Of a DNA stretch of 64,000 nucleotides, positions 2,622 through 39,564 are shown piece after piece. Origin of the DNA: Myxococcota bacterium (lineage in GTDB: Bacteria; Myxococcota; XYA12-FULL-58-9; JALHOP01). Within the stretch, counting starts at the first letter, position 1. Each line of letters opens with the position of its first letter. The notes beneath the pieces were generated by a model that was not told the DNA's origin, made no database searches, and was given only the letters and a program-made list of their open reading frames with translations. Both the position numbers and the translations under genes were made by a program. The stretch covers positions 77,592-141,591 of the forward strand of contig JALHOP010000007.1 of the NCBI GenBank assembly GCA_022842935.1, written 5' to 3'.

Positions 2622-3728
2622 TCAAGACGTGAGCACCTCGTCCGCGCGGAGGTCATCGATAGCGGTGGCTTGACGTCCAACGAGCGTTTCCAACAACGAT
2701 TTGGCGCTCCCTTGCGCAGAGTTGTGGAGAGAGACGCTGGTCGCGGTGCGGTAGAACGCGACGTTGACGCAGTGTCTGTAGAGGTCGAACCACGCGTCAT
2801 AAGCTGGGGTGATTGCGGCCTCGTCGTAGTAGGTGCGCAGGCTCGTCATCTCGAGAGAGCGCCGAACTTCGGGCGCGACCGAGCTCGAGAAAAAGAACGC
2901 GACATCGAAGGCTCCCGCGCCGCGACTGACGAGCTGCCAATCGAAGATGATCGGTTCTCCGCTTTGGCGGAAGAACATGTTGTCAGCTTTGCAGTCGCCG
3001 TGAAGCAAGACAGGCGATGAATCCGCAACGCGACGAATCGAGGATACAGCTCCTCGTGCCATCCGGTCCCCGACGCGGCGGGCGCGTTCGCCCAAGGATT
3101 CGCCTCTTTCGGCCCGCCACCGTGCCCAGCGGTCGGCACGCGGATCCGCGCCTTGCTGCCGTTGTGCGATGTGCATGAACGGGGGAGGCCAGGAGGCGGA
3201 CGCCAGCTGCCGAAACGTGGACGGCTGATGCAGGTCCGCGAGCGTACGGAGTACCTGCTCGGCCTGTCGTTGCGAGCAGCCAGCGTCGATGTCGCCCGCT
3301 GTCAGCGTCACATCATGGCTCAGGTCTTCGAGGACCAGCACCCCTTTGCCGTCCGCATCGACGTGTCCAAAGTAGAACTTCGGCGTGAGAACCGTCAGGC
3401 GTGGGGAGCAGTTGCGGTAAAAGTCGATCTCGTGCGCGCTCCAACCAGCGATACGATTGGCGCGCGCAATGGTGGGGTTGCTCGTGGGGAGCTTCACGAT
3501 AAGGCGCAGCGGCGTTGGGTTTCGAGCGTCTGCAACGACGGCACTCACGCGAACAGTCTGGCTCGCGGCCCCAGTCGCGACGGGTTCGACAGCCGACGCC
3601 TGGACACGCTCGTTGACGCCTACGACTGCGGCACAGCGCAATGCGCGGGTGAGCCAGTCGTCCGTCAGGTCGCCTGCGCTAAGTGGCAAATCGATGGGCG
3701 TTGGGGGCACTGGCGTCCAGCTCATCAC
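2622..3728 (-). CDS. phosphotransferase-family kinase (APH / choline-kinase-like fold)
   Basis: Brenner-type catalytic motif LLHGDCKADNMFF and a downstream IIFDWQ motif, as in aminoglycoside phosphotransferase-like kinases. Lies directly downstream of dnaK on the same strand. Confidence 0.6.
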   Translation of the reverse strand: MMSWTPVPPTPIDLPLSAGDLTDDWLTRALRCAAVVGVNERVQASAVEPVATGAASQTVRVSAVVADARNPTPLRLIVKLPTSNPTIARANRIAGWSAHEIDFYRNCSPRLTVLTPKFYFGHVDADGKGVLVLEDLSHDVTLTAGDIDAGCSQRQAEQVLRTLADLHQPSTFRQLASASWPPPFMHIAQRQQGADPRADRWARWRAERGESLGERARRVGDRMARGAVSSIRRVADSSPVLLHGDCKADNMFFRQSGEPIIFDWQLVSRGAGAFDVAFFFSSSVAPEVRRSLEMTSLRTYYDEAAITPAYDAWFDLYRHCVNVAFYRTATSVSLHNSAQGSAKSLLETLVGRQATAIDDLRADEVLTS

Positions 3729-22017: not shown

Positions 22018-24318
22018 GTGGTCGTCTCGGGGCTTATCTTGAGGCCGATGGCCACCACCGACTCCACCGAGCTGCTGTCGAACCTCGTCGACGATGTACG
22101 CACCGCCTTCCGTGAGGACCGCACCATCCTCTCGTTCAAGGAGTACTTCGCGGCGGTGGTCGAAGACCCGGCCAAACACCTGCGCTCGTCGGCGCAGTAC
22201 CTGGTCGATATGTTCGAGCACTTCGGCCGCCAGGAGCTCGAGCTGCCCACCGGCAGAGCCACGCGCTTCACGCTCTTCGACGCGCCCTTCGCCGACGGCG
22301 AGGGCCGAGTCGCGGGCCAGGAGCACATCCAGGAGCAGCTCTACCGCATCATTGCGAACTTCGCGCGCGAGGGCCGCGTCAACAAGCTGGTCCTGCTGCA
22401 CGGCCCCAACGGCAGCGCCAAGAGCTCGATGGTGCGCTGTGTGATGGCGGCGATGGAGGCGTATTCGCGCGTCCCCGCGGGTGCGCTCTACAGCTTCAAC
22501 TGGATCTTTCCGAGCGAACGACTCTCGAGCGGCTCCATCGGTTTTTCGAACAACGGCCGACGCGCGCCAGCCGCCGCAGGTGACACCTACGCGTATCTGT
22601 CGGCCGAGCAGATCGACGCGCGCATCCCCGCCGAGATGCATGACCACCCGATCTTCTTGATCTCGCAAGAGCGACGCGCCGACCTCTTGAAAAAGCTCTT
22701 GCCAGAGTCCGCCAAAACGGTCGAGAACCCTGACGCGCCGCCGCGCGCGAGTATCAGCGATTACCTGCGCTTCGGTGATTTGTCCTACAAGTCGCGCAAG
22801 ATCTACGACGCTCTGCTTGCGAGCTATGACGGCGATATCGACAAGGTGCTCTCGCACGTTCAGGTCGAGCGCTTCTATCTTTCGAAGCGCTACCGCCGCG
22901 GCGTCGCCACCATCGAGCCGCAGATGTCGGTCGACGCCCGTATCCAACAGATCACCGCCGACCGTTCGCTTGGCTCGCTCCCGAAGGCGCTGCAACACAC
23001 ATCGCTCTACGAGCTCTCGGGGCCGCTGGTCGATGCCAACCGGGGTGTCCTCGAGTTCAGCGATCTGCTCAAGCGGCCAGTCGAGGCGTTCAAGTACCTT
23101 CTCAACACCATCGAGACCGCGACCGTTTCGATGGACTCGTTCGTGCTCCACCTCGACATGGTGTTCCTCGCATCGACCAACGAGATCTACCTCGACGCCT
23201 TCAAGGAGCACCCCGACTTTGCGTCGTTCAAGGGGCGTATGGAGCTCGTGAAGGTCCCGTATCTACTGCGCTACAAGGACGAAAAGGCGATCTACCAGCC
23301 GCAGATCACGCCGCGCGTCGTAGGTCGTCATATCGCACCGCACTCCATCGACGTTGCCGCGCTCTGGGCGGTGCTCACCCGCATGCGCAAATGTGATGCG
23401 TCGCTCTATCCGAAAGAGATGCGTGGGGTCGTCGACTCGCTCACGCCTTACGAGAAGCTGCGGCTCTACGATGAAGGCGAGACGCCCGACCGGCTGAGCA
23501 ACCGTGAGTCCGCCGAGCTCCGGAATCTCGTCCACCAGCTCTACCGCGAGTCGCTTGGCTACCCGAACTACGAGGGCCGCTTCGGTGCCTCGGCGCGCGA
23601 GATCCGCACAGCGCTGCTCAACGCCGCCCACCACGACACGTACCAGTATCTGAGCCCCGTCGCCGTGCTCGACGAGCTACGCGAGATCCTCAAAGCCAAG
23701 AGCGTCTACGAATTCCTGCGCCAAGAGGTGGTCGGCAAGTACCACGACCACGAGGCATTTCTGAAGCAAGCCGAGCAGCACTACATCCACTGGATCGATG
23801 AAGAAGTGCGCGATTCGATGGGGCTTGCCACCGAGTCGTCGTACGGCGAGCTCTTCACGAAATACGTGAGCAATGTCTCGCACTGGGTGAAGGGCGAGAA
23901 GATGCTCGACACCGTCTCGGGCCAGTACCGCGACGCCGACAAGGCGTTCATGGCGGAGATCGAGGGCGTCTTGATGAGCGAAGGTGAGCGGTCCGAGGAC
24001 TTCCGGCGGGCGGTCATCGGCACGATCGGCGCCCGTGCTCTCGAGAACCCCAACGCGCGACCCAACTACAACGAGCTCTTCAAACACTACATCGTAAGGC
24101 TACGCGAGGACTTCTTCACCAAGCGTCGCAAGGTCATCGAGCGCAATATCGAGAATTTCTTGAAGCTCACGAGCGACGATAAGGGCGTCGGCCTCGACCC
24201 CAAAGACGCCACGCAGGCGAAGGCCATGCTCGAGCGCCTCGTCACGACCTACAGCTACACAGAGCCCTCGGCGCGTGACACGGTCGCTTTCTTGCTCAAG
24301 CGCAAATACGCGGGGTAG
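22018..24318 (+). CDS. prkA: PrkA-family serine protein kinase (AAA+ type)
   Basis: Walker A LLHGPNGSAKSS and a PrkA-type AAA and C-terminal domain architecture. At 766 aa it is longer than the roughly 630-645 aa of characterised PrkA/YeaG. Confidence 0.8.
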   Translation: MVVSGLILRPMATTDSTELLSNLVDDVRTAFREDRTILSFKEYFAAVVEDPAKHLRSSAQYLVDMFEHFGRQELELPTGRATRFTLFDAPFADGEGRVAGQEHIQEQLYRIIANFAREGRVNKLVLLHGPNGSAKSSMVRCVMAAMEAYSRVPAGALYSFNWIFPSERLSSGSIGFSNNGRRAPAAAGDTYAYLSAEQIDARIPAEMHDHPIFLISQERRADLLKKLLPESAKTVENPDAPPRASISDYLRFGDLSYKSRKIYDALLASYDGDIDKVLSHVQVERFYLSKRYRRGVATIEPQMSVDARIQQITADRSLGSLPKALQHTSLYELSGPLVDANRGVLEFSDLLKRPVEAFKYLLNTIETATVSMDSFVLHLDMVFLASTNEIYLDAFKEHPDFASFKGRMELVKVPYLLRYKDEKAIYQPQITPRVVGRHIAPHSIDVAALWAVLTRMRKCDASLYPKEMRGVVDSLTPYEKLRLYDEGETPDRLSNRESAELRNLVHQLYRESLGYPNYEGRFGASAREIRTALLNAAHHDTYQYLSPVAVLDELREILKAKSVYEFLRQEVVGKYHDHEAFLKQAEQHYIHWIDEEVRDSMGLATESSYGELFTKYVSNVSHWVKGEKMLDTVSGQYRDADKAFMAEIEGVLMSEGERSEDFRRAVIGTIGARALENPNARPNYNELFKHYIVRLREDFFTKRRKVIERNIENFLKLTSDDKGVGLDPKDATQAKAMLERLVTTYSYTEPSARDTVAFLLKRKYAG

Positions 24319-27236: not shown

Positions 27237-29423
27237 TCAGTGACCCTGTCCGCAACGGCTGCAGACGTGGGCGCGTCCTTCGAGACTCATGTCGCCGTCG
27301 CTCGCCGCGACCAGACGACCATTGCGGTCGAAGACCAGCGAGCCGGCGACAGCAGCCAAAATTTCGTTCGGCTTGCCAAAGCGGACGCGGGTGAAGCCAT
27401 AGCCGTCGGTGATGCGCTCGAGCTCGACCACGCCTTCGGCGCTCGTCCAGCCACCGACGCGCGCGGCAAGCGGGCCCTGACCACGCCGAGCAGAATCGAC
27501 GTCGCCGATGGTTGCGACGGGGAGGTCGCGGGTGATGCGCGGAGTGGTGTCAGCGGCGAGGAGGCCCCGTTCCCGCAGGATGCTCTCGAAGCGCGCAACG
27601 GACTCGGGCGACTCGGTTTCGCGCGCGCCGCGCAATAGAGCAGCACCGATATCGTGCAGGGAGCCGCCGTTCTCGGGCATGAACAGCATCGCGGCGTGTA
27701 ACGTGCTCGCGCTGACATCACGCACCCGTTGCACACTGGCGACCGGGTCGGTGGCGCCACGCGCCGCGTCGGACGCCTCGCGAGCGAAGTGCTCGTAGAG
27801 AGCACCCGAGATGATCCGTGAAACATAGTGGTGCTCACCGGCTCGGCTGCCGTCTGGCACTGGCGGGTTCCCGGATGCCGCCGGATCGAGCCCCGCGATG
27901 TCGCTGACGCGAAGCACGCTCGCGGCGTCACGCAGCGCTTGGTTGCCGTCGTCGGCTGGGTCGCGCGTGCTCGAAGCGATGGTGCGCGCGAGTTGTTCGG
28001 CGATACGAGAGACAGAGTTGCTACGGGTGAGATCGCCTTCCGTCTCGGCGAGGGCCGCACGAATCACCTCGGGAGAGTCGAACGCGGTGAGAAGCGCGAC
28101 CGAGTCGCCATAGGCCTCGTGCATGGCGCGCCCTGGCGCCGAGGAGAACATCGCTGGCATCAGCGTCGCGAGCGCCGCGTGACCCGCCTCATGGCTGCCT
28201 ACGAAGCGATCTTGAGCGAGTCGAACGAGCTGCCCGGTGAGTGGCCGGATGCGCGCGATCTCGAACCCCGCCCGCATGAGGTCGCCGCCATAGCGCGCGC
28301 GCGCGCTGAGGGTCAGAAATCTGTCGATGGGTAGAGGCTCTTCACCCGAGGGCGGCCTGGCAAAACCCCCAAAGAGCCTGCCCGCGAGGCCTCCGTTGGT
28401 TTGGCGCGGGTCAGTGATCGTCTCTCGCGCCCGCTCCGCGGTGAGGAGGCGCTCGACCTCGGCGACGTCGTCACGGCGGGCGGCGTCGACGATGGCGCGC
28501 AGCGCGGCAGCTTGCGCCCGCACTTCGCGCAAGCCGGCGGGATTGAGCTCGGGGCGACTTTCGGCGGAGAGGCGCGACTCTGTCTCGGAGACGGCACTCT
28601 CGCGCTCAGCGAGGGCGTGCTCGAGGAACGCGACGCTCGAGCCGTCGAGCGGCACCAGCCGCCCGTCCCGGACGTTACCCAGCGAGCCGAGTTGCACTTC
28701 ACGTGTGCCGCCAACGAAAAACGCGTTCAGCTCCACGCTGCTCGAGCCGACAAACGCGTTGGGGCGCACCGTGAGCTGACCGCCATCGCCCCAAGGGATG
28801 GGGCGCCGTGCCGCGCGCTCGGCCAAGGTGATGGTCTGGTTCGCGGCATAAAACGCGGTGGTCTGAGCCGTGTCCACCTCTGGGGCGTCGAAGTGGCCCT
28901 CGGCGTTGGCGGTCACGGGTGCGACCTGGCTCGGCTCGGTGATGACGTTGGTGGTGAGCAGGCCGATGAGCGGCAGCTGCGCAAGACCCGGGATGTTCGA
29001 CTCGGCCGTCTTGATGTCGCCATCGACGGCGATGCGCACACGCGGACCTTCGAGGAGCGAGGGCGCGTTACGCGTGCAATAAAAGGCGCTGCCGGGGAGG
29101 CTCGCAACCGTGGCTGGCCGACTTCCGTCGTCTTGGTGGACCCGGAGGTTTACCCCCGGGGTGGTGCAGATCGGCGGCCGCAAGGCGCCCGCTGAGCCTC
29201 GGGTGATTGGGGGAACACCGAACGGGAGCCCCGGTAGATTCACCTCGGGTCTCTGAACCTCGCGCTCGGGGTTGCGCACGTCGGTGGGGGCTGCGCCTTC
29301 GCCTGCACCTGCAAGGGCGGCACGGGAGGGGATACGGGTCGGCGCGATTGGAGTCACTTGCCTCGCATCCTCTCTGGTGCGCGATACACGCCACCTAGTT
29401 TCGTTCAGGATGTTTATCGGCAT
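27237..29423 (-). CDS. M4 (thermolysin-like) zinc metalloprotease homologue
   Basis: HEAGH (HExxH) motif followed about 20 residues later by HEAYGDS, which matches the thermolysin xEAxSD third zinc-ligand motif. No obvious N-terminal signal peptide. C-terminus ends CSRCGQGH. Start uncertain; the only Met is at 29423. Confidence 0.55.
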   Translation of the reverse strand: MPINILNETRWRVSRTREDARQVTPIAPTRIPSRAALAGAGEGAAPTDVRNPEREVQRPEVNLPGLPFGVPPITRGSAGALRPPICTTPGVNLRVHQDDGSRPATVASLPGSAFYCTRNAPSLLEGPRVRIAVDGDIKTAESNIPGLAQLPLIGLLTTNVITEPSQVAPVTANAEGHFDAPEVDTAQTTAFYAANQTITLAERAARRPIPWGDGGQLTVRPNAFVGSSSVELNAFFVGGTREVQLGSLGNVRDGRLVPLDGSSVAFLEHALAERESAVSETESRLSAESRPELNPAGLREVRAQAAALRAIVDAARRDDVAEVERLLTAERARETITDPRQTNGGLAGRLFGGFARPPSGEEPLPIDRFLTLSARARYGGDLMRAGFEIARIRPLTGQLVRLAQDRFVGSHEAGHAALATLMPAMFSSAPGRAMHEAYGDSVALLTAFDSPEVIRAALAETEGDLTRSNSVSRIAEQLARTIASSTRDPADDGNQALRDAASVLRVSDIAGLDPAASGNPPVPDGSRAGEHHYVSRIISGALYEHFAREASDAARGATDPVASVQRVRDVSASTLHAAMLFMPENGGSLHDIGAALLRGARETESPESVARFESILRERGLLAADTTPRITRDLPVATIGDVDSARRGQGPLAARVGGWTSAEGVVELERITDGYGFTRVRFGKPNEILAAVAGSLVFDRNGRLVAASDGDMSLEGRAHVCSRCGQGH

Positions 29424-29862
29424 GCTGACGCCGATGGTGCGTGAAAGTGCAAAGGGCTATAGTCGCCAGTCTGTGGCGTTCGTTCGCGTAGCATCACGTG
29501 GCAGCAGCATGTGGCCGACGCTCCGGCACGGCGACACCTTGCTCGTCGACAACATGGCGCCGCCCGCCGTTGGCGACATCGTCGTGCTGCGAGCGGGTGA
29601 GGGGAGCTTTATCGCCCACCGTCTGGTGGCCATGGCAAACGGCCTGGTGCGTTGCACGAATGCCCGCGGCGAGCCCGACCCCTGGGTCAGTCGAGACCAT
29701 GTGTTCGGGCGGGTCGCCTGTGTCGAGCGCGATGGGCGCTTGCTCGCGGTTGGGCGCGAACCGCCAAATGTGCGTATCCTTTGGGCGTTGCGTTCGAGCT
29801 ATGGTCTAGCGCGACGCATCGCGCATCGCGTGCGCAGGAGCCTTCGTGATCGCCAAGCGTAA
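29410..29862 (+). CDS. S26-family signal peptidase of the ER/archaeal (SipW-like, Ser/His) type
   Basis: Catalytic Ser box GSSMWPTLRHGDTLLVD, then GDIVVLR. A His (IAHRL) sits where bacterial type-I SPases carry the general-base Lys, as in Sec11/SipW-type enzymes. Start approximate; Mets are available at 29410, 29422 and 29434. Confidence 0.6.
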   Translation: MFIGMLTPMVRESAKGYSRQSVAFVRVASRGSSMWPTLRHGDTLLVDNMAPPAVGDIVVLRAGEGSFIAHRLVAMANGLVRCTNARGEPDPWVSRDHVFGRVACVERDGRLLAVGREPPNVRILWALRSSYGLARRIAHRVRRSLRDRQA

Positions 29863-30121
29863 GTCACATGTCGTCGCGCGCCAGGTCGACGACGAAGCCG
29901 TGCTCGTGCCCATCCGCAACGACGCGTCGACGCCGCTCGCCATTCACGCCTTGGGGCCGGTCGCCGCTTTCGTATGGGGATTGTTGGATGGGGCGCGGGC
30001 GAGCGATGTCATCGCGGACATGGTGAGCGACGAGTTCGAGGTCGACGCGGCCACGGCGCGCGTTGACGTCGCGACCTTCTTGACCGAGCTCGAGGCTGCG
30101 GGTCTCGTGGAGGTCACATGA
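29846..30121 (+). CDS. PqqD-family protein (RiPP recognition element / peptide chaperone)
   Basis: Canonical PqqD/RRE pattern (VVARQVDDEAVLV...AAFVWGLLDGARASDVIADMVSDEFEVDAATARVDVATFLTELEAAGLVEV). Its stop overlaps the radical-SAM start (ATGA). Confidence 0.7.
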   Translation: MIAKRKSHVVARQVDDEAVLVPIRNDASTPLAIHALGPVAAFVWGLLDGARASDVIADMVSDEFEVDAATARVDVATFLTELEAAGLVEVT

Positions 30122-31230
30122 CCGACGTTGCCGCAAGCAAAGGTGACAATGGCGCTGTTCGTGACCTGTACCAGCGCGCGCTGCGGAAGCGGCGCATCCC
30201 CATGCAAGCGATCTTCGAGCTCACGTTGCGTTGCAACTTGCGGTGCGATCACTGCTACCTGGGAAGTGATCGCAAGCGTGACGAGCTGTCGACTGCCGAG
30301 GTCACGCGCATCCTCGATGAGCTCGCGGGTGCGGGGACGCTCATTCTCACGTTGACCGGCGGCGAGGTCATGCTGCGGCCGGACTTCGAAGACATTTATC
30401 GGCACGCCATCGCGCGCGGATTTTTGGTCAGCGTGTTCACCAACGCGACGCTCATCAAGCCTCGCCACGTCCAGCTGTTCAAGGAGCTGCCGCCACGCGT
30501 CGTCGAGGTCTCGCTGTACGGCTTGAGTGACGACGACTACGTCGACTTCACGCATGCGACGATCCCTTTTGCCGACGTCGACGCCAACCTGCGCGCGCTC
30601 AAGAGCGCGGGCGTCCATTTCGTCTTGAAGAGCGTCGCGACGGTCACGCTGGGTCCCAAGATCCGAGCCATGCGCGCCTACGCCGAAGCGCTCGGTGTGC
30701 ACTTCCGATTCTCGACGACAGTCTACGGCGCCAATGACGAGACGGCGCTTGCCGACCACGAGCGACCCTCGGCCGAGACAGTCTGCGACAACGAGCGCGG
30801 CATCGTGCCAGTCGAGAGCCCGAACCGCGTGCCGCTCCCAACTCTTCCGAATCGTGTCTTCAACTGCGGAGCGGGTCGCGTCGCCATGCACGTCGACCCC
30901 GAAGGCATCGCTTCGCGTTGTGGCATCGTTACGAGCGCGCTTGGCGCACACACCGACTTGCGCAAGGTTTCGGTGCGCGAAGCCTGGGAGCGATTGGGCG
31001 TTGGCCTCGACGACGAGCTGGCCGAGGGGCATCCGTGCCGCGACTGTGAGATTAGGGCGCTATGCCACCGGTGCCCTGCGACCTCGACGCCCGAGCAAGA
31101 GATCGCCATGTGCGAGACTGCGCATGCCCGGGCGCGCGAGCTCGACCTTCAGGTGGCGGCGGTAGCGCCGATGCGCCAATTCTGGCAACCTCGGGAAGAG
31201 TCGATCTTGAAGCGGAGATTTCGTGGCTGA
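30118..31230 (+). CDS. radical SAM / SPASM-domain peptide-modifying enzyme
   Basis: CNLRCDHC (CxxxCxxC) radical-SAM cluster motif. C-terminal SPASM Cys cluster (FNCGAGR...CRDCEIRALCHRCP). Confidence 0.85.
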   Translation: MTDVAASKGDNGAVRDLYQRALRKRRIPMQAIFELTLRCNLRCDHCYLGSDRKRDELSTAEVTRILDELAGAGTLILTLTGGEVMLRPDFEDIYRHAIARGFLVSVFTNATLIKPRHVQLFKELPPRVVEVSLYGLSDDDYVDFTHATIPFADVDANLRALKSAGVHFVLKSVATVTLGPKIRAMRAYAEALGVHFRFSTTVYGANDETALADHERPSAETVCDNERGIVPVESPNRVPLPTLPNRVFNCGAGRVAMHVDPEGIASRCGIVTSALGAHTDLRKVSVREAWERLGVGLDDELAEGHPCRDCEIRALCHRCPATSTPEQEIAMCETAHARARELDLQVAAVAPMRQFWQPREESILKRRFRG

Positions 31231-31390
31231 CAGCAACCATCCGGCGCGCAAGCGCAAAGCCTATCAGCCACCGAAGCTCGAGACCGTCGAGGTCGTCGCC
31301 GAGGAAGCGCTGCTCGCTCTCTGCGCTTTCGGTGGTGGAACGCCCCAGACCGTCATGCAGGGCGCCCCCTGCGAGGTCTGCAAGAGTTGA
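31223..31390 (+). CDS. candidate RiPP precursor peptide (55 aa, not in the ORF track): VADSNHPARKRKAYQPPKLETVEVVAEEALLALCAFGGGTPQTVMQGAPCEVCKS
   Basis: GTG start overlaps the radical-SAM stop (GTGGCTGA) and is preceded by GCGGAG. It sits directly between the maturase and the kinase. Charged N-terminal leader-like half, a Gly-Gly-Gly junction, a core with three Cys and a C-terminal Ser. Confidence 0.5.
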   Translation: MADSNHPARKRKAYQPPKLETVEVVAEEALLALCAFGGGTPQTVMQGAPCEVCKS

Positions 31391-31421
31391 CGGGTGGGCG
31401 CCGCTCGCGTTTGTAGCGGGC

Positions 31422-32255
31422 GTGCGTGACATTGCTTTTGGGCCCATCGCTCTGCGCATCGCCGGAGACCTCGCGGCTGTTCGCTGGCCGCTCGGGGCCG
31501 ACGACGTGCAGGTCGCTCCGCGGGTAGGCGCGAAAGTCGTGCACACCGAGCTCGTCGACGACCTACCGCCGCTCGCGAACCCGACCATCGACACGGGGGT
31601 GTGGCGCGCCGCTGCCTCGGGAGACGGCACGCGCTTCGCAATCACGGTTCCTCCTGACGCTCGCGTCGTCGCCGATTTTCACTGGGGTACATCGATGGTT
31701 TTGCGCGTTGTTCGCGATTTCATCGGCTTCGACCGCGCCCCCTGGTTCGACATCCTCGTACAGCTTGCGGTGGCCGAGATGGCGCCTTCCTGCGCAGGCT
31801 TGGCGCTCCATGCGGCCTGCCTCGAGATCGGGGGTCGCGCTGTACTCCTGTGTGGGCGTTCGGGGGCAGGCAAGACCACGCTCGCTGGCCGCCTAATCCG
31901 TGCGGGGGGGCATCTGATGAGTCATGATCGAACAATCCTGTTCGGAAGCGGCGCATGGCGTGCCGTTTCGACTCCCTGGGGACACGATGGAAGGTTGGCG
32001 AGCGCCGAGCGCGAACGGGATGTCGGCGCTGTCTTGTTTCTCGAGCAAGCCCCCGTCAACAGTAGTGAACGACTGACCGGCGTGCGTGGTATGGCGCGCG
32101 TTGGGTCGGTGGTGCTCGGAGCCCGGTCTGCCAAAGCGGTTATGAGCAAAGCAATGGAAGTGGCGGAGCACCTCGTGCGTGAGGTGCCCTGCCACGTCGT
32201 GCGTTTGACGAACGACGAGCGAGCGACGGAACACGTGCTGGAGTTGTTGCGATGA
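31422..32255 (+). CDS. HprK-like P-loop kinase (HPr kinase C-terminal domain homologue)
   Basis: LLCGRSGAGKTTLAGRLIRAGGHLMSHDRTILF matches the HprK C-domain pattern GxSGxGKS...GHxLxxDD. Start placed at the first in-frame GTG after the precursor stop. The ORF-track frame extends upstream over the precursor and radical-SAM gene and is unlikely to be real there. Confidence 0.6.
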   Translation: MRDIAFGPIALRIAGDLAAVRWPLGADDVQVAPRVGAKVVHTELVDDLPPLANPTIDTGVWRAAASGDGTRFAITVPPDARVVADFHWGTSMVLRVVRDFIGFDRAPWFDILVQLAVAEMAPSCAGLALHAACLEIGGRAVLLCGRSGAGKTTLAGRLIRAGGHLMSHDRTILFGSGAWRAVSTPWGHDGRLASAERERDVGAVLFLEQAPVNSSERLTGVRGMARVGSVVLGARSAKAVMSKAMEVAEHLVREVPCHVVRLTNDERATEHVLELLR

Positions 32256-35203
32256 GATTCGCAGTTTTGGTGATTGTGGGCTCGGCCCTCCTGGCGAGTA
32301 GCGCAAACGCCGCCTACATCGCCAACATCACCATCGACGGAAATGCCGCAGACTGGAGCGGCATGTATCAGTTTCGTGACCGCAACGAGACGACCCAGAC
32401 TGGTACCGACATCCCCGACCGCTACGATGTCGACACCGTCTACGTCGCGAATGACGGCACGTACCTGTACTGGGCGATCAACACGTACGGTGCGATCAGC
32501 GGTAACCTCTCATGGCGCATCTACGTCGACCCGAACAACGACACGGCTTCGGGTGGCGGCTACGGCCAAGACGACCGCTACGTCGAGTTCGATACCAACA
32601 ACGGCACCTGCCAGGCAGTGACCGTCCACGACGCCGACAACAATGCGGTGCGCAACCCTGCCATCGGGTGCGGGAACGGCGCCAACATCAACGTGGCTTT
32701 CAGCGGCACCTTCATCGAGGGGCGCATCTTGCTTTCGCGCCTTTTCACGACGGTCCCCACCGGCGGCAACCTCAACATCGGCGTCCTCGTGCAGGTCATT
32801 CCGAACACGGGCAACACGGCGACCGAGCTCGCGCCGGGGCAGCCGCTTCCGTCGTTCATCGACTACGACAATCGTGGCACTCTGGTCCCCACCTTTGTCC
32901 GCGTCCGCGGACTGACCGCCGAAGCAGCTGAAGGTGGCGTACTCGTGCGTTGGCGCACGAGCGCTGAGTACTTCAGCGCCGGTACCTGGGTGGTCCGGGC
33001 GAGCGGCGACGACTGGGTGCCCGTAAGTGGCGAACCTTCCGCGACACAGAACCAGGCGACCGGCGACAGTTACGCCGTGGTCGATGCCAATGGAGGGCCG
33101 GGGGACATCTACGCGCTCGTCGAAGTCGACAGCCGCACTATCGTGCGCGTCTTCGGGCCCGTGACGGCCGTGAAGAGCGCCGTGACCTTGCCCACGCGCT
33201 CACAGCGTCTCGCCAGCAACCTGACGAGCAACGCCCGTCGCATCGCGTCCCTCGATCAGCGCCTGCGCGTGCGCACCGCTGCCCTGGACAACATCCTGAG
33301 TGGCGGCCCGCTCCCCGGGCGCTTCCCGCAGCTCGACGTCGATGTAACCCGCGAAGGTCTATTCGTCGTCTGCGATAGCGATACGCTACGTTATGGTGGC
33401 GTGCCTGCGAAGATCACGCGCGGCGCCGAGGTCGTACGTGGCTTTGCGGTGAGTACGCCGTGCGCGGGCCTTGGCTTCTACGCGCCGGCTCCGAGCTCGC
33501 CCTACGCGCCGTTCGACGTCTACCGCGTGCAACTCGCGGCCGCGCGCAACCTCTCGCTCATCGACGCGCCCCTCGTGACGACGTACGACGGCCCCGTATC
33601 ATTGGCAACGCTGTCCACGCTCGTGACACCGCGCCGCTATCTCGACATGCGCGACGGGCAGCCCAACCGTTTCTTCTGGAGCTACGCCTCGACCTCGCCA
33701 AGCGCTCCCGTCGACCTTCCCGCGATTCCGGGTTACGCCGACATGACCGTCGACGTGCATCCGCTCTCTGGCGGCGCGACGCACACCCTCGTGGTTGCGA
33801 CCGATCGCGAGCTTGGTCGCTACACGGTCGGTGACGGTTGGAGCCGAATCGACTTCACCAACCTGGCGGTGAACGGCGCTCCGGCTCTCACCTTCGTGGT
33901 CGAAGCAGAACAAGGCGTCATCGAGACGGTCTTGCTCGCCGACGCTACCGTCCGCTATCGCGGCGAGCCTGCCCAGGCCGAAAACGGTGTGCATTTCGGC
34001 GCCGACGGTGACAGCTGGGTCGGTGTCCGAGGCGGCGAAGGTTTCGCCTTCGATGTCACGCAACCGCGCGACCCAAGCCTCCTCGTCGTCGCCCCATACG
34101 CGAACGGCACCGTCGTACACACGCAACCCGAGACCCGCGATGTCTTCATCGCCAAGACCTTCACGAAGCTCCAAGCCGTGCCCACCCTCGTCGATGCGTT
34201 CATTGACGAGCCGGGGAGCGGCGCCGAATACCTAGTTCTCACACCGGCCTCGCTCGTGGACACCGCGCGTGAGCTCGCACAGCTGCGGGCCGAAGAGGGG
34301 ATGAGCACAGCGGTGCTCTCCTACGAGGCTGTCTACGCGCGTTTCACTGGCTCGAACCCCGACCCGACGGCCGTCGCGAAGCTCCTCGATTGGGCCGCTG
34401 TCCGCTGGAGCGTCGCACCGCGCTACCTCGTGCTCGTAGGTAGCACGAGCTCGGACCCGTATGGCTATACTGGGTCGCAGCGGCTCGCCGACGCGCCCAT
34501 CGCCGAGAGCTTGGACCCCGACTTTACCTACCGGCGCTTCAGTGACCGCGACCTCACGGGCTCGCATCAGGTCGCCGTCGGGCGCATTCCTACCTCTGAC
34601 GCTTATGAGCTTGGCCGCTACGTCGAGAAACTCCGCGCCCACCGCGAGCGGAGCGCAACGGGCGTCTGGTCAGTACTCGCTGGGGCCTCGACCCCCGATG
34701 AGCCCTCGTATGCTGGCCTCGTCAACAACATCGCGGCGCAGGTCGCCGAGTCGGTGACCATCGATCGCTTGGACGACGCAACCACCGTTGACCTCGTGAA
34801 TGCATGGGGCGCGGCCGACGTCATTGCCTACGCTGGTCACGGCGATGCCGAGTCGTGGGCAGACGACGTGCTCTACACCGAGCTTGCGCCAAACCTCGTG
34901 ACGGAGCGGCCACCCGTGACCCTTTCTGCGGCTTGCATGGACGCAATGACCACCAGCGCCAACGGAGGCCTCGCCTGGTCCTTGGTGTCCGCTGAAGTGG
35001 GTCGCGGTAGCATCGCAGCCATTGCGCCAAGCAGCATCATCGAGCCTATCAGGGCCTCTGCGTTCCTCGGACGGGCGGCTGCAGCCATCGCGCACGGTGA
35101 GGCGGCGCGCTGGGGGGATGCCTGGTTGCTCGCGCAGATGAGTGATACGAGTGTCGCCGCGCGGTCGATGGTGCTCATCGGCGACCCAGCGCTCAGCCCA
35201 TGA
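32252..35203 (+). CDS. secreted C25 (gingipain-like) cysteine peptidase family protein, 983 aa
   Basis: Sec signal peptide (ALLASSANA-AY). C-terminal region carries VIAYAGHGD (His box) and TLSAACMD (Cys box) in the order and spacing seen in the C25 catalytic domain. Its ATG overlaps the kinase stop (ATGA). Confidence 0.55.
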   Translation: MRFAVLVIVGSALLASSANAAYIANITIDGNAADWSGMYQFRDRNETTQTGTDIPDRYDVDTVYVANDGTYLYWAINTYGAISGNLSWRIYVDPNNDTASGGGYGQDDRYVEFDTNNGTCQAVTVHDADNNAVRNPAIGCGNGANINVAFSGTFIEGRILLSRLFTTVPTGGNLNIGVLVQVIPNTGNTATELAPGQPLPSFIDYDNRGTLVPTFVRVRGLTAEAAEGGVLVRWRTSAEYFSAGTWVVRASGDDWVPVSGEPSATQNQATGDSYAVVDANGGPGDIYALVEVDSRTIVRVFGPVTAVKSAVTLPTRSQRLASNLTSNARRIASLDQRLRVRTAALDNILSGGPLPGRFPQLDVDVTREGLFVVCDSDTLRYGGVPAKITRGAEVVRGFAVSTPCAGLGFYAPAPSSPYAPFDVYRVQLAAARNLSLIDAPLVTTYDGPVSLATLSTLVTPRRYLDMRDGQPNRFFWSYASTSPSAPVDLPAIPGYADMTVDVHPLSGGATHTLVVATDRELGRYTVGDGWSRIDFTNLAVNGAPALTFVVEAEQGVIETVLLADATVRYRGEPAQAENGVHFGADGDSWVGVRGGEGFAFDVTQPRDPSLLVVAPYANGTVVHTQPETRDVFIAKTFTKLQAVPTLVDAFIDEPGSGAEYLVLTPASLVDTARELAQLRAEEGMSTAVLSYEAVYARFTGSNPDPTAVAKLLDWAAVRWSVAPRYLVLVGSTSSDPYGYTGSQRLADAPIAESLDPDFTYRRFSDRDLTGSHQVAVGRIPTSDAYELGRYVEKLRAHRERSATGVWSVLAGASTPDEPSYAGLVNNIAAQVAESVTIDRLDDATTVDLVNAWGAADVIAYAGHGDAESWADDVLYTELAPNLVTERPPVTLSAACMDAMTTSANGGLAWSLVSAEVGRGSIAAIAPSSIIEPIRASAFLGRAAAAIAHGEAARWGDAWLLAQMSDTSVAARSMVLIGDPALSP

Positions 35204-37107
35204 AACAGGTCCTCCCTGTTGTACTTCTAGTTTGCGTGTTCGCGGCGTGCTCCGGTGACGGGAGCGAGGCGCTACTGCGGGTCGACGCGCGCGGTGTCCA
35301 AGCGCTGCGCTCCGCGCTCGACCTCGCCACTGGTCGTCTCACCATCAACTGCACCGACGGGCGTCGGTTCGACGTACCGGTCGCGCTCGATGCAATCGAG
35401 CCGCCGGGGCAAGAGCTGACCGTGGCGGTCCCTGCGTGCGGCGATGCGCGCATCGAGTTCCAAATCCTTTCGGGCGTCGGCGTCCCCGAGCTACGGGGCG
35501 CGAACGACGCCGTCCTCGTGCCGGGCTTCGTGGATGTGGAGATCCCGCTCGGCTATGTTGGCCAGCTCTCACTAAGTCTTGCCACTGACTCGCTCGTCGA
35601 GAGCTGCGTCGCCGTGGTCGAGCGCACCTCACCCGATCGCGTCCTCGTCGAAAGCGCGCTCACGCTGACCCGCACCGAAGTGACGTCGCTCATCGTCCCC
35701 ATCGGTAGCTACGACGTCACGTGCGACGGCCGCATCGCCCAGACTCTCGTGAGCCCGGGCCTCAACGTCGACGTCGCCCTCATTGACCCGGTGCCCGGTC
35801 CGCGGCTCATCAGCACCACCCTGCAGCCGAGCTATCCGCCGACCACCGCGCGCATCGACGTGACCTTCACATTTTCGGCGCCGGTGACTGGTGTCGACGC
35901 GAGTAGCGTGAGCCTCGACAACGACGGCACCATCCAGGCCGTGAGCGGGAGCGGTTCGAGCTACACCGTGACCTTCAATGGCCTCAACATTGGCACTGAC
36001 TACATCGTCACCCTGTCAGCCAGCATCGTCGACAGCGAAGGTCTTCCCCTGGTCGGCGCTCCGCTCCGCCTGCCCTTCCGCATCCGCGCCAACGAATACT
36101 TCGTGTCGACAGCTGGCGACGACAGCGTCAACAGCGGCACCGACCCGACGAGCCCTTGGCGCAATATCGCGTTTGCGGTGGCCAGTGCCTCGACGCCCGC
36201 GCGCATCTACGTCGCCGCTGGTACGTATGACGAGCAGGTGTTTCTCGCCAGCGATGTCACCATCGAAGGCGGCTGGTCAGCGGACTTCGTGACACGCGAC
36301 CTTGCCACTAACGAGAGCCGTGTCCGCGCGAGCAATCAGACGGTCTTTTTCGGCAGTGTCGGCAACGCCGTTGTCGATGGGCTGACCATCGAAGCGACGC
36401 AGCCGCAGCAAGTCGTGGTGATGCAGAACGCCGATGCCACCTTGCGTAACTGCATCGTCACCGGAGCGGGAGGAACCTTTCCGACTGGCTATGGCGTGTT
36501 CATCGAAGGCCTGGGTCTACCGAGTCTCGTCAACAACGTCATCGCGGTGTCGGCGGGCTCTTCGAGCACCTACGCGGTCTTCGTTCAGAACGGCGGTAGC
36601 GCCCGCGTCATCCACAACACCATCGACGCGGGTGATCGTGGCATCGTCTCCGGTGTCTACCTCGACAGCGCCGCGGGCGACGTCAGCATCGTGAACAACC
36701 TCTTTGTTGGTGGCACCACCGTCAACACCCGCGTCGGCATCACCGGGGAAGCGCCTCCTACCGCCCTTGTGAACAACGCGTTCTCGGCCGAACACGATGA
36801 TGCGTATCGCAACGCCGCTGGCACCGGGCTTCCCATCGGCGCGGCCGGTGACTTCGGCTTTACCGCGCCGCACCGCTTTAGCGGCAACGTGCTCGTGGCA
36901 GCTACCGCAGCCTTGGTTAGCGGTGGCGACTACCGCAGCACACCCGACAGCTCACTCCAGATCGGCATTGACTCGGCGCCCGCGGATTGCGGATTCACAG
37001 ACACCTCCGCCTACCCGTGTTTCGGTCCGACGACGGACCGCTTGGGACAGGCGCGCGCGGTCCCGACGACGGTTGGTGCCTACGCGTCCGGTGCCGGAGC
37101 GCTTTGA
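35200..37107 (+). CDS. lipoprotein with right-handed parallel beta-helix (pectate-lyase-like) repeats
   Basis: Lipobox LLVCVFAAC. Repeated beta-helix rungs (NAVVDGLTIEA, LRNCIVTGAGG, LVNNVIAVSAG, VIHNTIDAGD, SIVNNLFVGG). Its start overlaps the preceding stop (ATGA). Confidence 0.6.
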   Translation: MKQVLPVVLLVCVFAACSGDGSEALLRVDARGVQALRSALDLATGRLTINCTDGRRFDVPVALDAIEPPGQELTVAVPACGDARIEFQILSGVGVPELRGANDAVLVPGFVDVEIPLGYVGQLSLSLATDSLVESCVAVVERTSPDRVLVESALTLTRTEVTSLIVPIGSYDVTCDGRIAQTLVSPGLNVDVALIDPVPGPRLISTTLQPSYPPTTARIDVTFTFSAPVTGVDASSVSLDNDGTIQAVSGSGSSYTVTFNGLNIGTDYIVTLSASIVDSEGLPLVGAPLRLPFRIRANEYFVSTAGDDSVNSGTDPTSPWRNIAFAVASASTPARIYVAAGTYDEQVFLASDVTIEGGWSADFVTRDLATNESRVRASNQTVFFGSVGNAVVDGLTIEATQPQQVVVMQNADATLRNCIVTGAGGTFPTGYGVFIEGLGLPSLVNNVIAVSAGSSSTYAVFVQNGGSARVIHNTIDAGDRGIVSGVYLDSAAGDVSIVNNLFVGGTTVNTRVGITGEAPPTALVNNAFSAEHDDAYRNAAGTGLPIGAAGDFGFTAPHRFSGNVLVAATAALVSGGDYRSTPDSSLQIGIDSAPADCGFTDTSAYPCFGPTTDRLGQARAVPTTVGAYASGAGAL

Positions 37108-37134: not shown

Positions 37135-39564
37135 GTGCGAGCGCGTCGAACCTGTGCGACACTGCTATCGATGAGGCGAAGGCTCACACTGTTCGCGCTG
37201 CTGTCTAGTTGCTCGGTCGATCTCCAGATCCCGGATGCTGCGGACATCGCCTGCGAGAGCGACGATGACTGCCCATCGGGCTTCATCTGCGATGTGCGCA
37301 GTCAGTGCCGCAGCCCGGAGGTCGCGGCGCGCGGTGTCCCCGGGTTCGACATTACTCCGACGACCGTCACCGTCGGGGAGTCCGGCACGCCGACGGTCGT
37401 TAACGTGCGCCTCACCGCGCAGCCGACCGCGGCGGTCACTCTCGTGCTCGCGCCCGATGACGGCAGCGAAGCGTTCATCTCCAAGAATGTGCTGACGTTT
37501 ACACCGGAAAACTACAACATCGCTCAAGCAGTCACGGTCGTCGGCGAGCGCGACTGCCTCGCGGACGGGCCCATCGTCTCGCACATCCTGATTTCTCCGG
37601 CCCAGAGTCTGGACCCCGACTACAACGGCCTCGACGCGCCAGATCTGGAAGTCACCACCAACGACGACGTGCCTTCCGCGGGGATCGTGGTTACGCCTCC
37701 CAGCGGCCTCGAGACCAACGAGAGCGGCAACGTGACCCAGTTCACCGTCGTCGTCGCTTGTAAGCCCACGGCGGACGTTCATTTTACCCTGGCGTCGACG
37801 GACGAAACCGAAGGCACCATCACCACGACTGAGCTCACTTTCACGCCTGACAACTGGGCGGTCCCGCGCGTCATCAACGTAGCGGGCAAGGGTGACTGCG
37901 AAACCGACGGTGACGTCACCTATGCCGTCGATCTCGGTAGGGTCGCGAGCGACGACCCGCTCTACGCGGGCATCGATGCGCCGAACGTCGAGCTCGTCAA
38001 TCGTGACGTTGTTTTCGGGCGGGTCAACGTCTCGCCCAACAACGGCCTGCGGACCACCGAAGGCGGCGGGCAAGCGACGTTCTCGGTGACGCTCACTTGC
38101 GCGCCGAGCGCCAATGTCATCGTGCCGATTGGCACAGGTGACGGAAGCGAAGGCACTCCGGGCGCGACGACGAGCCTCACGTTTACTCCGGCCAACTGGG
38201 GCGAGCCGCAAGCGGTCATCATCACCGGCGTAAATGACTTCTACGACGACGGTAACATTGCGTACGCCATCACCACCGGCACGCTCAATAGCACCGACCT
38301 TGGCTTCAATGGGCTCGATCCTGTCGATGTCAGCGTTACCAACGAAGACGACGACACAGCGAGCGTCACCGTGACCCCGACCACCGGTCTGCACACGACC
38401 GAAGCCGCGGGCACGGCGCAGTTCAGCATTCAGCTCGGGGCCGAGCCCCTATCACCCGTGCAGATCGCCATCGCCAGCACCGACACAGCCGAAGGGACCG
38501 TCGTCGGCACCACGGTGACGATCGCCGACCGCAATCCACGTTTCATCACCATCACCGGCGTGAACGACCCGGTCGACGACGACAACAAGAGTTACACCAT
38601 CACGCTGGGCGACATCGTCAGCAGCGACCCCGCCTTTAGCGGCATGGCGGTGCCCGACGTCGCAGTCATCAACGACGACGACGACACCGCGGGATTCACG
38701 CGCTGGGAGAACGCTGTATACGTCACCGAGGCGGGCAGCACCGCGGACGTGCGGCTCAGTCTCGCCTCGAGGCCGAGCGCCGACGTCAATTGCGTGGTCG
38801 ACGACACGTTCAACGACAACGAGATCCGTGTGGGCACTACCGGTTCGGTGAACGTGACGTTTACGCCGGTGACCTACGGCCTGTTGCAGTCGGTGACCGT
38901 GACGGGGGTGAACGACGGCGTCGCTGATGGCCTCTCGAATCCGTTGCCTTCGGTCCGTACCCAGTGCACGTCCGCGGACCCAAAGTACAACGGCATGCAA
39001 TACTACGTGACAGCCTACACCATCGAGCCGGCCAGCTCGCGGCGCGTCTACCAGACCGCAACAGCGGGCTACACCGGCAATCAGATCGCGATCACCACGG
39101 CTGACACCATTTGTCAGAACAACAACCCCATCGGCAGCGGCACCTGGAAGGCGATGCTCACCTCGTCGGATCCTACGGCGCCATCGGCGTTGCGGCGCGC
39201 CTGCACGACGCCCAACTGTGTCAGCAGTAGTGAGAATCAAAACTGGGTCTTCAGGCCGGCCTTCACGTATTACTGGTCCGGTGTGAACGGCATCGTCGGC
39301 ACGACGAACGCCGCTGGCATCTTCACCGGCATGATCGATGGCACACCGCCTAGCTCGGGCACCGCAGGTTTCGCTGGCTACTGGACCGGCATGAGCGCCG
39401 ATTTCACGAACAACGCCAATTGCAACAATTGGTCGACCACCAGCGGCACGGGGTCGGTTGGTCTCGACCGCCAGTCCACTGTCGGCAACACATTCGGCTG
39501 GAATCCGGGCATCGCCACCTTCGACTGCACCCAGACCCATCAGCTGCTGTGCATCGAGCAGTGA
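37135..39564 (+). CDS. lipoprotein with roughly six tandem 95-aa Ig-like repeats and a C-terminal C-type-lectin-like domain
   Basis: Lipobox LFALLSSC. Repeating unit VTPxxGLxTxExGxxAxFxVxL...LTFTPxNWxxPQxVxVxGxxD. The C-terminus ...WNPGIATFDCTQTHQLLCIEQ resembles the end of C-type lectin folds. Confidence 0.6.
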   Translation: MRARRTCATLLSMRRRLTLFALLSSCSVDLQIPDAADIACESDDDCPSGFICDVRSQCRSPEVAARGVPGFDITPTTVTVGESGTPTVVNVRLTAQPTAAVTLVLAPDDGSEAFISKNVLTFTPENYNIAQAVTVVGERDCLADGPIVSHILISPAQSLDPDYNGLDAPDLEVTTNDDVPSAGIVVTPPSGLETNESGNVTQFTVVVACKPTADVHFTLASTDETEGTITTTELTFTPDNWAVPRVINVAGKGDCETDGDVTYAVDLGRVASDDPLYAGIDAPNVELVNRDVVFGRVNVSPNNGLRTTEGGGQATFSVTLTCAPSANVIVPIGTGDGSEGTPGATTSLTFTPANWGEPQAVIITGVNDFYDDGNIAYAITTGTLNSTDLGFNGLDPVDVSVTNEDDDTASVTVTPTTGLHTTEAAGTAQFSIQLGAEPLSPVQIAIASTDTAEGTVVGTTVTIADRNPRFITITGVNDPVDDDNKSYTITLGDIVSSDPAFSGMAVPDVAVINDDDDTAGFTRWENAVYVTEAGSTADVRLSLASRPSADVNCVVDDTFNDNEIRVGTTGSVNVTFTPVTYGLLQSVTVTGVNDGVADGLSNPLPSVRTQCTSADPKYNGMQYYVTAYTIEPASSRRVYQTATAGYTGNQIAITTADTICQNNNPIGSGTWKAMLTSSDPTAPSALRRACTTPNCVSSSENQNWVFRPAFTYYWSGVNGIVGTTNAAGIFTGMIDGTPPSSGTAGFAGYWTGMSADFTNNANCNNWSTTSGTGSVGLDRQSTVGNTFGWNPGIATFDCTQTHQLLCIEQ

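Follow-up and report, generated by a model that had tools for sequence, protein, structure and literature searches.

What is encoded in the narrow gap between a radical S-adenosylmethionine (radical-SAM) enzyme gene and the gene for an HPr-kinase-like protein in a Myxococcota bacterium? The window analyzed here is a stretch of 64,000 nucleotides (nt) of contig JALHOP010000007.1 (assembly GCA_022842935.1), and the gap holds an open reading frame (ORF) of 55 codons. A preliminary description, made from the sequence alone, had proposed that this ORF encodes the precursor of a ribosomally produced, post-translationally modified peptide (RiPP). As judged by comparison with related loci, the ORF is a real, conserved gene under coding constraint. 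Its product of 55 amino acids (aa) is very probably the precursor peptide of a RiPP cassette that combines a radical-SAM maturase with a kinase-like protein of the ScmC family. The favoured statement as a whole, which adds the modification steps discussed below and is weighted towards precursor identity, is likely. The ORF and its presumed ribosome-binding site are located as follows.

31223..31390, + strand: putative precursor peptide gene, 55 aa plus stop, based on translation, public gene calls, conservation and wobble-biased substitutions
31212..31217, + strand: Shine-Dalgarno-like GCGGAG within the 3' end of the radical-SAM gene, read directly from the sequence

Translation of the + strand from 31223 to 31390 gives VADSNHPARKRKAYQPPKLETVEVVAEEALLALCAFGGGTPQTVMQGAPCEVCKS followed by the stop codon. 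The sole usable start is the GTG at 31223. An in-frame stop lies upstream at 31208, and the next in-frame start, the ATG at 31355, would leave a product of only 11 aa. The ORF overlaps the end of the radical-SAM gene (TGA, 31228-31230) by 8 nt, and the GGAG of the GCGGAG ends 5 nt before the GTG. The same start-stop overlap was retained in relatives; by its layout, the ORF is translationally coupled to the radical-SAM gene. The three Cys residues are encoded at 31322-31324 (Cys34), 31370-31372 (Cys50) and 31379-31381 (Cys53), and the C-terminal Ser55 at 31385-31387. All of these elements, from the coordinates, GTG start, overlap and GCGGAG to the Cys and Ser residues, were present as the preliminary description had given them. 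It had also called the ORF uncalled. This was correct for the ORF track that it used, but the gene calls of the NCBI whole-genome shotgun set LNFM01 and of the JGI metagenome 3300002461 include an identical 55-aa product as a hypothetical protein.

Is the ORF more than an accident of base composition? The region is about 66% GC, the surrounding 11 kb is overlapped by 104 ORFs of at least 40 aa, and chance could by itself account for an ORF of this size in such DNA. It rises above chance because it is conserved. Close loci were traced from homologues of the window radical-SAM protein at 79, 72, 70, 48 and 49% identity. In these loci (L002/3, L004, L005/6, L007 and L008) an ORF of 55-59 aa lies between the radical-SAM and ScmC genes, and the gene order is the same. 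The search for such short ORFs, which the preliminary description had recommended, thus succeeded in all six syntenic loci, and the ORF with its frame is conserved in distant loci of many phyla as well, in keeping with its proposal of a RiPP precursor between these two genes. Gene callers annotated the syntenic small ORF in two of the close loci and overlooked it in the rest.

Among the six possible frames, the ORF frame is the only one open throughout all six homologues; the other frames accumulate stops. Compared with L002, the window differs at 8/6/21 nucleotides at codon positions 1/2/3 of the ORF frame. The ratio of synonymous to non-synonymous codon changes is 11:13 in this frame, and 2:24 and 1:27 in the other sense frames. 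These observations bear on the idea that GC-rich DNA left the ORF open by chance, or that it is part of an HprK-like gene that extends upstream in another frame. The GC content and the many overlapping ORFs speak for it, as does the HprK frame, which is open from 31062. Against it stand the conserved open frame, the wobble bias confined to the ORF frame and the presence of the peptide in thousands of metagenomic clusters. Furthermore, the ScmC homologues begin at the equivalent of the GTG at 31422 (MR.I.FGP...), and in L007 and L008 the peptide stop codon comes before the ScmC start. The HprK-like gene of the window, with its start at GTG 31422 matching these N-termini, does not overlap the ORF, which agrees with the reading of the preliminary description. 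Conservation, homologue N-termini and the gene order in L007 and L008 already refute a chance frame or an overlapping HprK-like gene, and we give this explanation almost no weight.

An RNA element instead of a gene was also rejected, as Rfam gave no match within 29000-33000 at E≤1. A GC-rich hairpin (31398-31427) sits directly behind the peptide stop, takes in the GTG start of ScmC and is followed by a short U-run. This hairpin was dismissed as an element: its stability does not significantly exceed that of shuffled sequence (z = -0.89), and the intergenic gap is absent in L005.

Which residues of the peptide are constrained? Fourteen positions were invariant in the six aligned peptides: M1, R11, Y14, P17, V22, A29-L30-L31-A32, C34, P49, C50, C53 and the last Ser. 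In the close subfamily the three Cys are invariant and the C-terminal Ser is found in 12 of 12 peptides, so that the residues singled out as key in the preliminary description held up. The leader pattern YxxPxL...ALLAxC is conserved and residues 35-45 are variable among the aligned close-subfamily peptides. We infer that the leader comprises residues 1-33 (31223-31321), including YQPPKL at 31262-31279, and that the core runs from Cys34 to Ser55 (31322-31387). The locus displays the generic features of a radical-SAM/SPASM RiPP precursor: a co-oriented ORF beside the maturase, a conserved leader with a variable core, and a PqqD-type RiPP recognition element (RRE) in the cluster. Recognition of the leader by an RRE had been proposed before, and it gains support from the conserved leader and from the PqqD-type RRE gene next door, which the preliminary description lacked. 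The Gly-Gly-Gly junction, proposed as a double-glycine cleavage site, did not survive comparison. Relatives have GGD, SDG, SAS, AGGG or EPSG, and neither a C39 peptidase domain nor an ABC transporter was found among the cassette genes.

How far does this peptide reach beyond the close loci? Scanning a genome collection with the radical-SAM alignment gave 80 loci, whose radical-SAM proteins are 25-39% identical. These span Desulfobacterota, Nitrospirota, Omnitrophota, Chloroflexota, Planctomycetota, Acidobacteriota, Actinomycetota, Bacillota and others. Local hidden Markov models (HMMs) detected an ScmC-like gene in 58 of the 80 loci, and PqqD-like and S26-like genes in most. Two arrangements were seen. 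Type A, that of the window, has one radical-SAM gene, a gap and ScmC, and type B, the SynChlorMet arrangement, has ScmC and two radical-SAM genes. Type A peptides were picked by position alone, in loci found only through the radical-SAM protein. Every type A gap between the radical-SAM and ScmC genes contains an ORF of 50-70 aa with the pattern Y-x-[KP]-P-x-[LIV]-x-x-[IV]-x-[LV]...E-E-x-[LIV]-L-x-x-C-[K] and at least two further Cys. The terminal residue is Ser in 15 of 18 of these peptides, and the remaining three end in Thr, Gly and Pro. The peptide HMM matched type B loci too, often with multiple copies, and 41 of the 43 peptides that it detected in ScmC-containing loci end in Ser or Thr.

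Larger searches gave the same picture. A word-indexed search with 27 diverse members found 303 proteins, all unnamed or "hypothetical". From this search 128 peptides were retrieved, 120 ending in Ser and 8 in Thr, and the motif [YWF]xxPx[LIVM] was present in 127 of them. An exhaustive profile search of 1.84 billion cluster representatives returned 3,963 matches at E≤0.001, 626 of them at E≤1e-10. Among 136 new sequences from this search, Ser is the last residue of 117 and Thr of 14; the other five resemble truncated or read-through gene calls. The precursor family comprises 3,963 clusters at E≤0.001, or about 4,000 at 50% identity, and has no name. No Pfam or NCBIfam model matched any family member tested. 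A search of full-text literature turned up neither the peptide family nor a RiPP system that pairs a radical-SAM enzyme with an HPr-kinase-like protein; subscription literature lay outside this search, and a prior description there is possible.

The family is regular in its spacing. The distance from [YWF]xxP to the first Cys is 20-21 residues in 233 of 236 members, and Lys follows the first Cys in 202. The stretch that begins with the first Cys and runs to the C-terminus, 33 aa at the median, contains much Gly, Ser, Cys, Ala, Thr and Asn and forms a variable core with 3-4 Cys. In 173 of 237 members (family P0124-P0386) the last Cys stands exactly 6 residues before the terminal Ser/Thr, a fixed distance that suggests a structural link between the last Cys and the terminal residue. 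The window subfamily is a divergent branch with Ala, not Lys, after the first Cys. Its last Cys lies 2 (CKS, CAS) or 5 (CFTNS, CFQAS) residues from the end, and the spacing in the window itself is 2. In the type B cassettes L023 and L025 (five hits, both strands) the precursor is present in several divergent copies, each of which ends in Ser. One retrieved protein, P0251 (180 aa), resembles two adjacent precursors fused in one gene call.

Could a conserved small protein in this position be something other than the substrate? It might be a small accessory protein, a regulator or an immunity protein, and the gene of the true substrate might lie elsewhere. No Pfam or NCBIfam model names the peptide, and to our knowledge the TIGRFAMs text gives the SynChlorMet-type precursor as "not identified"; both count for such a role. 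What makes it highly improbable is the RiPP precursor architecture of the peptide, with an RRE-type YxxPxL leader and a hypervariable core rich in Gly, Ser, Thr, Asn and Cys within 50-65 aa, together with the several divergent copies in some cassettes such as L023 and L025. The peptide gene always adjoins the radical-SAM, PqqD and ScmC genes in the same orientation, and the 64-kb window contains neither a second precursor copy nor any other small ORF that matches the family.

With the peptide as the favoured substrate, the question becomes which enzymes act on it. Operon content was taken from JGI gene calls on an identical contig together with Pfam and NCBIfam scans. The genes form a tightly coupled operon in the order S26-like peptidase, PqqD-like chaperone, radical-SAM/SPASM enzyme, peptide, ScmC/HPr-kinase-like protein and C25 peptidase. 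Successive genes overlap from the S26-like peptidase through to a beta-helix gene described below, with the exception of a 31-nt gap after the small ORF. The genes around the peptide are listed here.

about 29410..29862, + strand: S24/S26-type (signal-peptidase-I/SipW-like) serine peptidase (Pfam Peptidase_S24 and S26; NCBIfam signal peptidase I; JGI call)
29846..30121, + strand: PqqD-family peptide chaperone (RRE), 91 aa (assigned to PF05402 PqqD in the identical JGI call)
30118..31230, + strand: radical-SAM/SPASM maturase, 370 aa (PF04055, E 2.9e-23)
31422..32255, + strand: ScmC-family HPr-kinase/phosphorylase-like P-loop protein, 277 aa (assigned to PF27840 ScmC in the identical JGI call)
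32252..35203, + strand: C25 (gingipain/PorU-like) cysteine peptidase, 983 aa (PF01364, E 7e-33), with an N-terminal signal-peptide-like segment

The PqqD gene stop overlaps the start of the radical-SAM gene. Its best NCBIfam matches are the lasso-peptide PqqD chaperones NF033530 (E 2.7e-8) and NF033536, followed by GeoRSP PqqD and ScmD, all below the curated cut-offs. The radical-SAM protein has its CxxxCxxC motif at C39/C43/C46. Seven C-terminal Cys (C250, C268, C307, C310, C316, C319 and C332) are invariant in the alignment and form a SPASM-like pattern. Its top NCBIfam matches are StsB, MftC, NirJ, AlbA and PqqE, all far below cut-off, and its nearest solved structures are SkfB (6efn) and PqqE (6c8v).

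The ScmC protein contains His130, the P-loop GRSGAGKT and an HDR motif with Asp169. Aligned with Lactobacillus casei HprK/P (1jb1, E 1.8e-7), its profile covers the catalytic core with the conserved His, the P-loop and the ADDR motif that holds the catalytic Asp. In 44 distinct ScmC relatives the His and the P-loop G-K-[ST]-T are invariant, and the Asp position is always Asp or Glu. Because the HprK/P motifs are conserved, ScmC looks like an active phosphotransferase and not like a degenerate relative. It falls outside the bona fide HPr kinase/phosphorylases as defined by TIGR00679, with a score of 23.3 bits against a cut-off of 240 and an alignment of only about 45 residues around the P-loop. 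Weak NCBIfam matches were obtained to HprK_rel_A, ScmC, HprK_rel_B and hpr-ser. A single-sequence AlphaFold prediction of ScmC had a pLDDT (predicted local distance difference test) score of 34 and was unusable.

HPr-kinase homologues are known from lasso peptide clusters, where the precursor, before it matures, receives from them a phosphate on the hydroxyl of its C-terminal Ser (PMC8498205, a review). These kinases recognize the terminal Ser with little regard for the remaining peptide, and this phosphorylation is the only characterized role of HPr-kinase homologues in RiPP pathways (PMC8498205). The leader binder in lasso systems is the PqqD-like B1 protein (PMC5067487).

How might the parts work together? 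First, PqqD would bind the lasso-like YxxPxL leader and present the peptide to the radical-SAM/SPASM enzyme. Second, the radical-SAM enzyme would place intramolecular cross-links at the three invariant Cys, for which thioethers of the sactipeptide or ranthipeptide type seem the most likely. Third, ScmC would phosphorylate the terminal Ser55. Finally, the leader would be removed by the S26-like peptidase, the secreted C25 peptidase or both. We give the specific installation of thioethers by the radical-SAM enzyme even chances on the sequence relationships above. Three points lead us to propose that ScmC phosphorylates the C-terminal Ser: the family ends in Ser/Thr almost throughout, the kinase core is intact, and lasso clusters offer a precedent. 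By this analogy the proposal could equally well be right or wrong. For the family in general, the data may define a large RiPP class of Cys-rich peptides with a lasso-type leader, cross-linked by a radical-SAM/SPASM enzyme and either O-phosphorylated at the terminal Ser/Thr or transformed there via a phospho-intermediate by ScmC. This broader proposal is tentative and falls slightly short of an even chance.

Several observations weigh against the favoured reading. All cassette functions are inferred from sequence. The two nearest solved radical-SAM enzymes differ in chemistry, with thioether formation in SkfB and C-C bond formation in PqqE. No known reaction can be assigned to any of the enzymes, because their NCBIfam matches are all far below the curated cut-offs. 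The window subfamily may be processed differently from most of the family, because its last-Cys spacing is 2 and not 6. The link of ScmC to the C-terminal Ser is a correlation, and there are loci that depart from it. L010 and L018 are ScmC loci whose peptides end in Pro or Gly. At 2388-2573 of L059, a two-radical-SAM cassette encodes a Ser-ending peptide, no ScmC was detectable within 9 kb, and an ABC transporter follows.

Another locus, L064, has PqqD, radical-SAM and S26-like genes and no ScmC; its peptide (3517-3645) ends in Glu and an ABC transporter follows here too. L064 and L059 bear on the link between ScmC and Ser in opposite directions, and both are anecdotal.

Should the terminal residue carry a stable phosphate at all? 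The peptide could be a precursor whose terminal Ser/Thr, together with ScmC, serves a different chemistry. In one version, phosphorylation is followed by elimination to dehydroalanine or dehydrobutyrine and by attack of a nearby Cys, giving a lanthionine-like ring at the C-terminus. This elimination with ring closure is the main rival for the last chemical step. The 6-residue spacing in 173 of 237 members suggests a geometric link of this sort, and the acceptance of both Ser and Thr as terminal residue fits as well. The window subfamily, however, has a spacing of 2 or 5 and not 6, and Pfam and NCBIfam identified neither a lyase nor a LanC-like cyclase among the cassette genes. In a second version, the C25 (PorU/sortase-like) peptidase, or export, would use the terminal Ser/Thr as a place of recognition or attachment. 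PorU, a member of the C25 family, is a C-terminal sortase. Cassettes repeatedly encode C25 peptidases with an intact His/Cys dyad, and the NCBIfam model of the type IX secretion system (T9SS) sortase PorU gave a match at E 7e-16, which is far below cut-off. Yet among the retrieved ScmC loci only about one in four has C25. The sole characterized precedent for an HPr-kinase homologue acting on a RiPP is stable O-phosphorylation of the C-terminal Ser (PMC8498205), which also speaks against either version. Overall, we regard a chemistry other than stable phosphoserine as unlikely.

To which known system does the cassette belong? Compared with the phosphorylated lasso peptides (paeninodin, with PadeA, the PqqD-like B1 and PadeK), it shares a discrete PqqD-like leader binder, an HPr-kinase homologue within the gene cluster, a precursor that ends in Ser and the Y/W-x-x-P-x-L leader motif. 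YxxPxL is the recognition motif of lasso leaders. The PqqD protein of the window also scores best against lasso PqqD chaperone models, below their cut-offs, and the nucleotide-binding and catalytic core that characterizes the kinases of phosphorylated lasso clusters is found in ScmC, where His130, GRSGAGKT and HDR align to 1jb1. A fainter likeness is that leaders of relatives reach 12 bits, compared with a cut-off of 27, over the first 12 leader positions of the paeninodin leader model NF033524; the window peptide itself matched no lasso precursor model. In contrast to lasso clusters, no cassette gene has the domain of a lasso cyclase (Asn-synthetase-like C protein) or of the transglutaminase-like B2 leader protease. 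The window has instead a radical-SAM/SPASM enzyme, an S26-like peptidase and a Cys-rich core.

The SynChlorMet cassettes (ScmC, ScmD and ScmE/ScmF; TIGR04248-TIGR04251) bring the same protein types together. PF27840 matches the window ScmC, and two-radical-SAM type B loci such as L023, L027, L034, L052, L058 and L076 carry peptides of the same family. We know of no precursor assigned to SynChlorMet cassettes. The window differs in having one radical-SAM gene, not two, within its 64 kb, and in adding S26-like and C25 peptidases. Its scores are also low against the SynChlorMet models: 25.6 bits compared with 125 for ScmC, 25.9 with 100 for ScmD, and 46.5 and 47 with 400 for ScmE/F.

Sactipeptide and ranthipeptide systems (SkfB, AlbA, StsB, CteB and PapB) also use a radical-SAM/SPASM enzyme on a short Cys-containing precursor via an RRE, and the top NCBIfam and PDB matches of the window enzyme, StsB and SkfB, fall among them. 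Their RRE is an N-terminal domain of the enzyme, whereas that of the window is a separate PqqD protein. The kinase-like partner and the invariant C-terminal Ser/Thr are foreign to those classes. Pyrroloquinoline quinone (PQQ) and mycofactocin pathways (PqqA/D/E and MftA/B/C) resemble the cassette in their small precursor, discrete PqqD-type chaperone and SPASM radical-SAM enzyme, with MftC and PqqE among the top matches. However, the window peptide has neither the Glu/Tyr motif of PqqA nor the C-terminal Val-Tyr of MftA, the models of these precursors gave no match, and the window cassette has a kinase and peptidases.

The system thus looks like a hybrid of a sactipeptide/ranthipeptide pathway with the tailoring module of phosphorylated lasso peptides, related to SynChlorMet. 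By the defining tests applied to its genes, the cassette is not a member of the lasso, SynChlorMet or sactipeptide/ranthipeptide systems, because its equivalog scores are far below cut-off, it has one radical-SAM gene and not two, and it lacks a lasso cyclase and B2 protease.

If the favoured reading is true, it supplies a substrate and a testable reaction for ScmC, a widespread family found with radical-SAM/SPASM enzymes, and with them the missing substrate and function of ScmC/SynChlorMet-type cassettes. A lasso module of leader, PqqD and C-terminal-Ser kinase would then have been recombined with radical-SAM chemistry, and a large unmined class of modified peptides would exist, mostly in uncultured anaerobes and in sediment and groundwater bacteria. 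For genome miners, the Ser/Thr ending is a simple and specific signature. This would add a large new branch to systems of a known kind and would not amount to a new biological principle, and the family-wide pattern is of more interest than the single ORF.

Which of the peptidases might remove the leader? The S24/S26-type enzyme is a candidate leader peptidase on sequence grounds: its GxSMxP and HR motifs align with cassette-linked homologues, and this gene type occurs in most related cassettes. Its start is uncertain, as the ORF is open from 29272. Public calls of S24/S26-like genes in L002 (5325-5732), L004 (2414-2875) and L005 (5355-5732) begin at the Met of "MWPT" and lose the catalytic Ser of GSSMWP; the true starts in these three loci are probably upstream of the called ones.

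The C25 gene start overlaps the ScmC stop, and C25 is present in all close loci. Its catalytic dyad (the His of GHG, and Cys) was conserved in 11 of the 11 full-length cassette-linked copies compared. C25 is a recurrent accessory gene that also directly adjoins the cassette in nine distant loci. These are L014 (106-3621), L017 (3-3710), L021 (112-3642), L032 (17-3409), L035 (11-3628) and L047 (21-2864), as well as L026, L029 and L044. It lies downstream of the cassette in the clade of the window and upstream elsewhere. It may serve in leader removal, in processing coupled to export or in sortase-like transfer. The next gene is translationally coupled to it.

35200..37107, + strand: beta-helix (NosD/DUF1565-like) protein, 635 aa (Pfam matches; synteny in L002, L004 and L005)

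Whether the beta-helix protein is a member of the cassette is uncertain, because it is conserved only in close loci. A DUF1554 protein (37135-39564) follows the beta-helix gene. Both are syntenic in L002, L004 and L005, and neither was seen in distant cassettes. On the other side, a 728-aa protein on the - strand (27237-29423) has an HEAGH (HExxH-like) motif and no Pfam or NCBIfam match. The called start of the S24-like gene lies within the 5' end of its gene. The protein is probably outside the cassette, because it is absent from the syntenic loci L002-L005. Further upstream lies a gene for a PrkA-type AAA serine kinase (22018-24318), and the order of PrkA, Usp, small ORFs and cassette is kept in L002 and L005.

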